Sequence record: HE978309
Direction: 5' to 3' (one strand)
Origin: Enterobacteria phage GEC-3S
DNA length: 64,000 bases
Below are positions 20,344 through 21,174 of this stretch, piece by piece. The translations under genes and the position numbers were made by a program. The notes beneath the pieces are model-generated. The model was not told where the DNA came from, did no database searches, and saw only the letters and a program-made list of their open reading frames with translations. The first letter of the stretch is position 1, and each line of letters opens with the position of its first letter.

Positions 20344-20679
20344 TTATCCTTTCTTAAACAAATTGCGAATCCAGTATACAAACGGGATTTCTTTAAACTT
20401 GAATTTCTCTATAGTTAATTCTTTAGTAGCAAGATGAATACCATAAGCATCATGTGTCACGATATGCCATTTTCTATAGTCCAAATGTGAACAACCGTCT
20501 GGATCTAGGTTAATAAGAGTTTCTCGCTCACTAGGATTGTTTTTCCACAATTTTGTAATAGGATCGCACATAATTCGACCTAGCGTACCATGAATAATCT
20601 CACAACGGTAAAGTTTTCCAGCAGTGAGATAGGCGCACCCGTCATAGTCGGTATAAACAAACACTTCTTTAACACTCAT
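20344..20679 (-). CDS. hypothetical protein, GCSHL-family paralog 1
   Basis: track ORF; shares DPDGCSHLDYRKW with the two downstream paralogs. Confidence 0.6.
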   Translation of the reverse strand: MSVKEVFVYTDYDGCAYLTAGKLYRCEIIHGTLGRIMCDPITKLWKNNPSERETLINLDPDGCSHLDYRKWHIVTHDAYGIHLATKELTIEKFKFKEIPFVYWIRNLFKKG

Positions 20680-20707
20680 TTTAATACTCCTTTGTTTCGA
20701 TGGGGGT

Positions 20708-20737
20708 ATATTACTACCCCCCGTTTTGTTGTGTCAA
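20708..20737 (-). promoter_or_regulatory. sigma70-type early promoter (TTGACA, 18 bp, TAATAT) with GGGGGTA/TACCCCC inverted repeat
   Basis: read directly. Confidence 0.5.
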
Positions 20738-20998
20738 CTACTTTTTCAAGATTTTTTTAATTGCGTTCCAAAGACCTTTATTCTCAGGTTGTTTTGGTTC
20801 TTCGATCAGTGTCCATGTTCGACCGTCTAAGTGTGCACAATTTTTAAGACAAATAAAAATCTGGTGTCCCTTATCATCACGGATATAACCACTATTCGCA
20901 AATCTTTCATGTGGTGTATATTCATACAGTGTATTTGGTGTAATATACTTGCGGTTACTATAAGGTGTCATTACATATTTCATGGTACTAACTCCCAT
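20738..20998 (-). CDS. hypothetical protein, GCSHL-family paralog 2
   Basis: track ORF; CAHLDGRTW motif. Confidence 0.55.
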   Translation of the reverse strand: MGVSTMKYVMTPYSNRKYITPNTLYEYTPHERFANSGYIRDDKGHQIFICLKNCAHLDGRTWTLIEEPKQPENKGLWNAIKKILKK

Positions 20999-21174
20999 TT
21001 ATCACCGCGAAGATGAGAACATCCACCATCAAGAAGGATCGTAATACGAAACCCCGCATCATCTTCAATATACCCGATAGTCGGTGGATGTTCGTCGTCT
21101 CGTGCCGGGGTAAAATCATACATCTTTCCCGGTGTGATATCATTGCCTTTATTGCTATTGGTATAAACTTGCAT
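20980..21174 (-). CDS. hypothetical protein, GCSHL-family paralog 3
   Basis: track ORF; GGCSHLRGDKW motif. Confidence 0.55.
   Translation of the reverse strand: MQVYTNSNKGNDITPGKMYDFTPARDDEHPPTIGYIEDDAGFRITILLDGGCSHLRGDKWELVP

Follow-up and report, generated by a model that had tools for sequence, protein, structure and literature searches.

What are the three small genes that precede regB in Enterobacteria phage GEC-3S, and what could they do for the phage? They lie in a 64,000-nucleotide stretch of its DNA (record HE978309; 'the window' is this whole stretch), in which a first-pass annotation had pointed to three neighbouring small ORFs that share a motif. The three ORFs and their motif variants, GCSHLDYRKW, CAHLDGRTW and GCSHLRGDKW, are all present (Table 1). 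Window bases 19800–22500 are 90–99.3% identical to matching sequence in 57 genomes of Krischvirus (RB49-like T-even coliphages), the closest being phage Phi1 at 99.3%. In the Phi1 and RB49 annotations the trio are the hypothetical proteins ORF095, ORF096 and ORF097.

Gene order, relatedness and transcription signals

The region is encoded wholly on the minus strand, where the genes run vs.8, ORF100, vs.6, nrdC.11, ORF097, ORF096, ORF095, regB, vs.1, vs and tk.4. Because all genes here are read on that strand, the trio is transcriptionally upstream of regB and not, as first described, downstream of it. ORF097 follows nrdC.11 after a gap of 21 nt that holds no promoter, and regB starts 4 nt past the ORF095 stop codon. 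The ATG of ORF096 at 20983 has a GGGAG upstream and overlaps the ORF097 stop codon as ATGA; this overlap, together with the use of 20983 in most GenBank records, favours the shorter start, so that ORF096 most likely encodes 81 aa. The 86-aa form from 20998 is less likely, its upstream ATG being incidental and arising from conserved Lys/Arg-Trp codons of ORF097. Of the sizes first listed, 111 and 64 aa therefore stand, while 86 aa most likely does not.

Two other genes of the region bear on its annotation. The vs.6 gene (window 21981–22397, minus strand), named autonomous glycyl radical cofactor or pyruvate formate-lyase in some GenBank records, has a 138-aa product ending in …RVSGYAVRF… and looks like a phage-encoded GrcA/YfiD-like spare glycyl-radical domain. 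It fills the slot upstream of nrdC.11 in the window and in most other genomes; in FL04, JSE, JK32 and MIZ4 an HNH/homing endonuclease is annotated directly upstream of nrdC.11, a presence/absence polymorphism beside the transcription unit of the trio. The 151-aa product of tk.4 (window 18402–18857, minus strand) looks like a macro domain, and its homologue in the metagenomic ENA contig ERZ16268176 scaffold_28569 weakly matches PF01661.

The likeness first noticed by eye holds up in formal comparison. Pairwise BLASTP gives E 8e-12 for ORF096 against ORF097 (43% identity across 51 residues), 6e-5 for ORF095 against ORF097, and 2e-3 for the weakest pair, ORF095 and ORF096. We also built an independent HMM from 61 family members, each less than 40% identical to any of the trio, and ran it on the 755 six-frame ORFs of the window. 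It recovered exactly the trio (E 5e-24, 1e-21 and 1e-15), with the next ORF at 0.47, and no further family copies were found within the 64 kb. All three proteins are direct sequence members of PHROG clusters: phrog_6261 is matched by ORF095 (E 1e-37), ORF096 (E 9e-6) and ORF097 (E 2e-29), and phrog_15978 by ORF096 (E 2e-60). PHROG thus splits in two a family that we treat as one. At the level of sequence, these comparisons confirm that ORF095, ORF096 and ORF097 are true relatives sharing one domain.

The signals around the genes agree with the early-type region proposed for them: σ70-like promoters face the trio, and no T4-type late promoter was found near it. The 58-nt spacer between ORF096 and ORF095 is a promoter-early stem-loop (PeSL) cassette. 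Such cassettes and their associated ORFans have been described for the hyperplastic regions of RB49 and Phi1 (Arbiol et al. 2010, PMC2839356), in a main text that does not mention ORF095–097 or their relatedness. As in that description, ORF095 is preceded, after the stop codon of an upstream ORFan, by σ70-like −35 and −10 elements with a polyG/polyC stem-loop on the −10, and has a Shine-Dalgarno sequence between these and its ATG. In contrast, ORF097 and ORF096 lack both a PeSL and a spacer, and are carried on the nrdC.11 transcript. We count five distinct sites with the PeSL motif TTGAC…GGGG…CCCC in the window, where 0.15 would be expected. The copy at 28565–28599 is near-identical to the one before ORF095, and the two could therefore be recombination partners.

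A second σ70-like promoter, overlapped by a stem-loop, precedes nrdC.11; the equivalent of this stem-loop is annotated as a terminator in G2494 and Makalu_001. This promoter (21953–21925) likely serves nrdC.11, ORF097 and ORF096. We propose that host σ70-type promoters would drive early expression of the trio from two units, one comprising nrdC.11, ORF097 and ORF096, with the latter two translationally coupled, and the other comprising ORF095 and regB behind the PeSL cassette. A literature search found no transcript or proteome data for the trio, and early expression is suggested by these motifs. The early accessory context itself is well supported.

Table 1. Coordinates of genes, signals and protein features in and around the ORF095–ORF097 array (window positions unless residues are stated)
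Feature	Position	Strand	Remarks
nrdC.11 (context gene)	21196..21894	−	Predicted nucleotidyltransferase; from annotation
ORF097 (Phi1 ORF097 / RB49ORF097c)	20980..21174	−	64 aa; canonical stand-alone family domain; from ORF list
ORF097 signature CSHL…W	residues 52–60
ORF097 Shine-Dalgarno GGAG	21187–21184	−	Read from sequence
ORF096	20738..20983	−	81 aa (most likely form); family domain and basic amphipathic C-terminal tail LWNAIKKILKK
ORF096, longest ORF	20738–20998	−	86 aa
ORF095	20344..20679	−	111 aa; domain at residues 3–76, inserted loop at ~41–52
ORF095 tail	35 residues after domain		Amphipathic helix FVYWIRNLFKK at end
regB (context gene)	19917..20339	−	Annotated in Phi1 and RB49; PF10715 matched by homologue in ERZ16268176 scaffold_28569
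regB GGAU Shine-Dalgarno / RegB autoregulatory site GGAUAAUAAAA	20349–20346	−	Last Gly codon and stop codon of ORF095
PeSL cassette, ORF096/ORF095 spacer	20680..20737	−	58 nt; from promoter and stem-loop scan
PeSL −35 TTGACA	20737–20732	−	Directly past ORF096 stop codon
PeSL −10 TAATAT	20713–20708	−	18-nt spacer from −35
PeSL stem-loop GGGGG(G)T…ACCCCC	20721–20702	−	Overlaps −10
ORF095 Shine-Dalgarno GGAG	20690–20687	−	In PeSL spacer
Stem-loop/terminator upstream of nrdC.11	21971–21947	−	Overlaps σ70-like promoter; element spans 21925..21971
σ70-like promoter before nrdC.11	−35 TTGGCT at 21953; −10 TATGAT to 21925	−
Other PeSL-like motifs	28565–28599, 26765–26787, 11376–11398	−
Other PeSL-like motif	7165–7189	+

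The protein family, its signature and its predicted fold

To place the trio among other proteins, we scored a profile of the three sequences and their close metagenomic relatives against 1.84 billion representative proteins (E up to 1e-3). The resulting family comprises at least 173 clusters at 50% identity. Its stand-alone form predominates, with 102 of the 159 retrieved proteins no longer than 75 residues and a median length of 69 aa. Cultured carriers are Krischvirus, T1-like Drexlerviridae, Vibrio myophages of ∼140 kb, and Enterobacter, Salmonella and Morganella siphophages. Around the family genes on the metagenomic contigs that we read lie terminase, portal, HNH endonuclease and primase-type genes, and no neighbour is conserved. 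Wherever context was read, members sit in phage genomes or in contigs with phage genes, and by sequence the family appears to be a phage-specific and widespread one of ∼60-residue proteins. A locus search with ORF095 alone returned a single IMG/VR locus. A tblastn search with an artificial consensus sequence gave no match, probably from low-complexity masking.

Multiple copies are not peculiar to Krischvirus. The domain is repeated two to three times inside single polypeptides (P0017, P0020 and P0036), and adjacent genes carry it in unrelated T1-like phages (W011D gp19/gp18 and Bas11 0078/0079), which are an independent case of neighbouring copies. In both T1-like pairs, a stand-alone member is followed by a longer protein with a second domain copy at its N-terminus (Bas11, MZ501085, 47025–47219 and 47216–47653; W011D, our locus L003, 2977–3189 and 3186–3923). 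Two further Bas11 genes, 0048 and 0041 (DUF7244), give weak matches to the family (E 2e-3 and 2e-2, respectively).

The family consensus is MKVKTxYxxxxYITxGKxYx…IxDDxGxxxxIxLxxCAHLxGxxWExVE and its signature T-x-G-K-x-Y … I-x-D-D-x-G … C-x-H-L-x-G-x-x-W. In an alignment of 99 members, Y19 and W60 are invariant (99/99), and T14 (95/99), K17 (94/99), C52 (90/99), D39 (89/99) and H54 (88/99) are nearly so; Ser replaces C52 in eight members, and 36 of the 99 have a second Cys, in the RT loop. The CSHL…W motif that first drew attention to the trio is the family signature, since its residues are conserved throughout this alignment. It closes the shared domain in all three proteins. Its placement near the C-terminus is nonetheless accurate for ORF097 only; in ORF096 and ORF095 it is followed by tails of 20 and 35 residues.

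Known families offer no counterpart at the sequence level. Neither the trio nor the 99 members have a real match in Pfam or NCBIfam, where we saw noise only (DUF6501 at E 2e-3 or weaker in four members, one Tudor_5, and FosA at 19 bits against cut-offs of at least 180), and a profile search of PDB sequences returned nothing under E 0.04. We found no functional annotation on family members, PHROG gives no function, and none of the fusion partners of the longer members has a known function. A literature search with locus tags and PHROG identifiers found no mention of them. What the present analysis adds is the link between the two PHROGs, the signature, the predicted fold and the tandem co-residence.

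The AF2 model of ORF097 (pLDDT 87.8) has an SH3-like strand order. That of ORF095 has a core with pLDDT above 90 and a tail of low confidence, in which a helix is placed at residues 100–109. From the strand order, the family is predicted to adopt an SH3-like small β-barrel. That fold is defined by a five-stranded barrel with an RT loop, a distal hairpin and a 3-10 helix ahead of the last strand. SH3, Tudor and KOW small β-barrel domains are among the nearest known counterparts. A Foldseek search against BFVD returned uncharacterised phage proteins only.

Members differ in charge. Most are acidic (median net charge −5, pI 4.7, with 88% of members negative), and ORF097 is typical in this respect (net charge −5, pI 4.6). 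In contrast, ORF096 (+6, pI 9.5) and ORF095 (+2, pI 8.3) are basic. Their terminal segments LWNAIKKILKK and FVYWIRNLFKK have hydrophobic moments of 0.78 and 0.67, both above the 0.57 that this scale gives for the membrane-targeting sequence of FtsA. The two tails are candidate membrane-targeting helices of the MinD/FtsA type, which are terminal, about 10–15 residues long, and have a high hydrophobic moment and a basic face. Amphipathic basic tails also occur in the distant members P0015, P0018, P0035 and P0115.

These features suggest a reading for which we put the chances at about even: that ORF095, ORF096 and ORF097 are early, non-essential, protein-binding SH3-like modules. They would be individually dispensable accessory proteins that act through binding rather than catalysis. 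The small barrel would dock on a host or phage protein through conserved residues, which a secondary-structure model assigns to the end of the RT loop, the distal turn and the 3-10 helix. ORF097 would represent the typical free acidic form, and the basic amphipathic helices of ORF096 and ORF095 probably anchor the domain at the inner membrane or on a partner, so that one binding domain may be deployed both free and tethered. The argument for a binding module draws on predicted fold class, size and charge, and is strengthened by the lack of any enzyme or nucleic-acid family match in Pfam, NCBIfam or PDB sequences. The basic character of ORF096 and ORF095, unlike the rest of the family, counts against it.

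Some of the conserved residues might just as well belong to a metal-binding or active site. If the proteins were small metal binders, redox proteins or enzymes acting through Cys52-x-His54, Asp39 and Lys17, this would account for the conservation of these four positions and for the second RT-loop Cys of some members. However, just two well-conserved candidate ligands are too few for an intramolecular zinc site, and Ser stands in for the Cys in the members noted above. Moreover, one allele class of ORF096 (allele B, described below) has CAYL for CAHL and is under purifying selection (dN/dS within the class 0.175). With no enzyme-family match either, we consider such an activity quite improbable.

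Evolution of the array and possible RegB sites

If the proteins are dispensable binding modules, how is the array maintained? ORF095 and ORF097 are matched over their full length in all 57 Krischvirus records, with ORF095 95–100% conserved. For finer comparison, we aligned the region in 15 genomes. All 15 retain the array of three genes, but two of them each have a broken copy: in FL04, a 14-nt deletion (alignment 1093–1106) frameshifts ORF097, and in KFS-EC, a nonsense codon (Q41*) truncates ORF096. Because both phages are viable isolates, single copies are dispensable for propagation. Purifying selection acts on the trio, though less tightly than on its neighbours, since dN/dS (0.26 for ORF097, 0.24 for ORF096 and 0.12 for ORF095) is well below 1 yet 2–10 times that of the flanking nrdC.11 (0.024) and regB (0.058 for its N-terminal part). 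ORF096 falls into two deep allele classes, separated by a dS of 0.87; the CAYL variant of allele B is found in Brandy, SSG23 and JK32. The early description of the proteins as diversified is thus apt with respect to their neighbours and to the two alleles of ORF096, but sits less well with values of dN/dS so far under 1.

The three genes are not each other's nearest relatives. Twelve other aligned family members are closer to ORF097 than ORF096 is, and the best matches of ORF095 are generic family members. We rejected a recent local duplication on the ground that, for every paralog, other phages hold closer relatives than its neighbours. For the same reason the array would, by these sequence comparisons, be either old or built by cassette accretion.

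One metagenomic sequence joins two of the genes. P0009 (45–296 of ERZ16268176 scaffold_28569) is an 83-aa in-frame fusion of the N-terminal half of ORF097 with the C-terminal half of ORF096 (allele B). Its joint lies in the shared GYIKDD stretch and equals a 185-nt deletion. We do not use it as evidence, since the gene lies only 44 nt inside the end of a metagenome contig of 3 kb, at its start, and may be an assembly artefact.

Accretion raises the question of whether the genes have any function at all, or are passengers of mobile PeSL cassettes that hitch-hike in a recombination-prone region. The PeSL context, the loss of single copies in FL04 and KFS-EC, and the closer relatives of each copy elsewhere are all consistent with passengers. 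Purifying selection on all three genes (dN/dS 0.12–0.26) is not, nor are the full-length matches to ORF095 and ORF097 throughout Krischvirus, the retention of the array in every aligned genome, or the conservation of signature residues across at least 173 clusters. We therefore regard the absence of function as highly improbable, and return to accessory proteins that act by binding.

The regB neighbourhood suggests a way in which such genes could be silenced. RegB with S1 cleaves at the consensus GGAGRAYARAA (PMC1702504). Counted by eye, the Shine-Dalgarno regions of ORF097, GGAGAUUAAGA, and of ORF095, GGAGUAUUAAA, each match this consensus at 9 of 11 positions; what follows the GGAG of ORF096 fits poorly. 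The regB GGAU site, reported to be cleaved in vivo in RB49 (PMC3014915), overlaps the end of ORF095. Given the 9/11 matches and this overlap, RegB may plausibly shut off the ORF097 and ORF095 messages through their GGAG Shine-Dalgarno sequences. A RegB cut at 20346–20349 would also sever the message of ORF095 immediately ahead of the stop codon.

Proximity to regB may also have coloured the annotation of ORF095. Its homologue is labelled 'putative endoribonuclease' or 'endoribonuclease RegB' in MK327932 (G2248), MT478991 (011D4), MW748999 (Skers) and MK962753 (JK32). We find no support for this label: the ORF095 homologue in ERZ16268176 scaffold_28569 has no Pfam match, and it is the adjacent regB product that matches PF10715. 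The label seems to have spilled over from the regB gene beside it.

It may still be asked whether the proteins are RNA-binding or RegB-associated post-transcriptional factors, with an Sm/KOW/Tudor-like barrel and with ORF095 modulating RegB or its substrates. The 4-nt spacing to regB, the sharing of the GGAU site with the last codon and stop codon of ORF095 (PMC3014915), and the basic pI of ORF095 and ORF096 would fit such a role. However, nucleic-acid binding is disfavoured for the canonical form because the family is acidic overall. In addition, members occur in other phages without a regB neighbour, no sequence match to RNA-binding families was found in Pfam or NCBIfam, and the endoribonuclease label lacks a RegB-family match. 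A role of this kind is very doubtful, and protein binding remains the reading that we favour.

Possible partners and relation to phage defence

Which proteins might the barrel bind? The closest structural match of both AF2 models is Gp54 of Escherichia phage Bas11 (PDB 9AXB), a small β-barrel protein that triggers the defence protein CapRel-SJ46 by binding to it directly (PMC11578894). The trio does not belong to the Gp54 family, however. None of the three proteins matches PF25180 at E up to 1, whereas Gp54 itself does so at 6e-34, and hhalign gives a probability of 2.5% for Gp54 against the present family. Gp54 is a six-stranded barrel with a Pfam family of its own, and its signature-like C-x-H…W stretch lies mid-sequence, whereas in the present family this stretch closes the domain. 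Bas11 moreover encodes genuine members of the present family at loci other than that of Gp54 (bas11_0078 and bas11_0079).

Host takeover or anti-defence, the roles first put forward for the trio, would be a reasonable prior. In the strict anti-defence form, each paralog would inhibit a bacterial immune system or be sensed by one, as Gp54 is by CapRel, and an arms race would explain why several versions reside together; this would be a special case of the binding reading. It would fit the small size, early type and dispensability of the genes, their place in a hyperplastic region, their raised dN/dS, the two deep alleles of ORF096, and the Gp54 match. Another pointer is the family member P0058, whose fusion partner has a Tad2-like match (E 8e-4). 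That match does not reach Pfam's threshold, however, and falls outside the family domain. Neither the trio nor the 99 members have a Pfam match to a known anti-defence family (e.g. Tad2 or Ocr), and both a dN/dS well under 1 and the near-identity of ORF095 across Krischvirus argue against this reading. On balance, we think strict anti-defence fairly unlikely.

Beyond the trio, we conjecture that the CxHL…W barrel may be an unrecognised and widespread phage interaction domain, whose co-resident free, membrane-tethered and multi-domain versions would attach to proteins of the host soon after infection begins. As with the structurally similar Gp54, immunity might sense its members as well as be countered by them. 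We offer this wider view as a long shot, less probable than not by a good distance.

As it stands, the result is mainly an annotation clean-up. In place of three 'hypothetical proteins' there is now a single domain family, marked by a signature and a predicted fold; ORF095 has no support for its endoribonuclease label; and the start of ORF096 moves, most likely, to 20983. The trio is a defined member set of a familiar kind, the small ORFans of T-even hyperplastic regions, and its genes are fairly ordinary early accessory genes. Should the proteins prove to be binders of host or defence proteins, they would open a phage 'dark matter' family of at least 173 clusters in a standard E. coli phage. 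If the CxHL…W domain is indeed an interaction domain, the Krischvirus trio would serve as an E. coli model through which the family as a whole becomes tractable.
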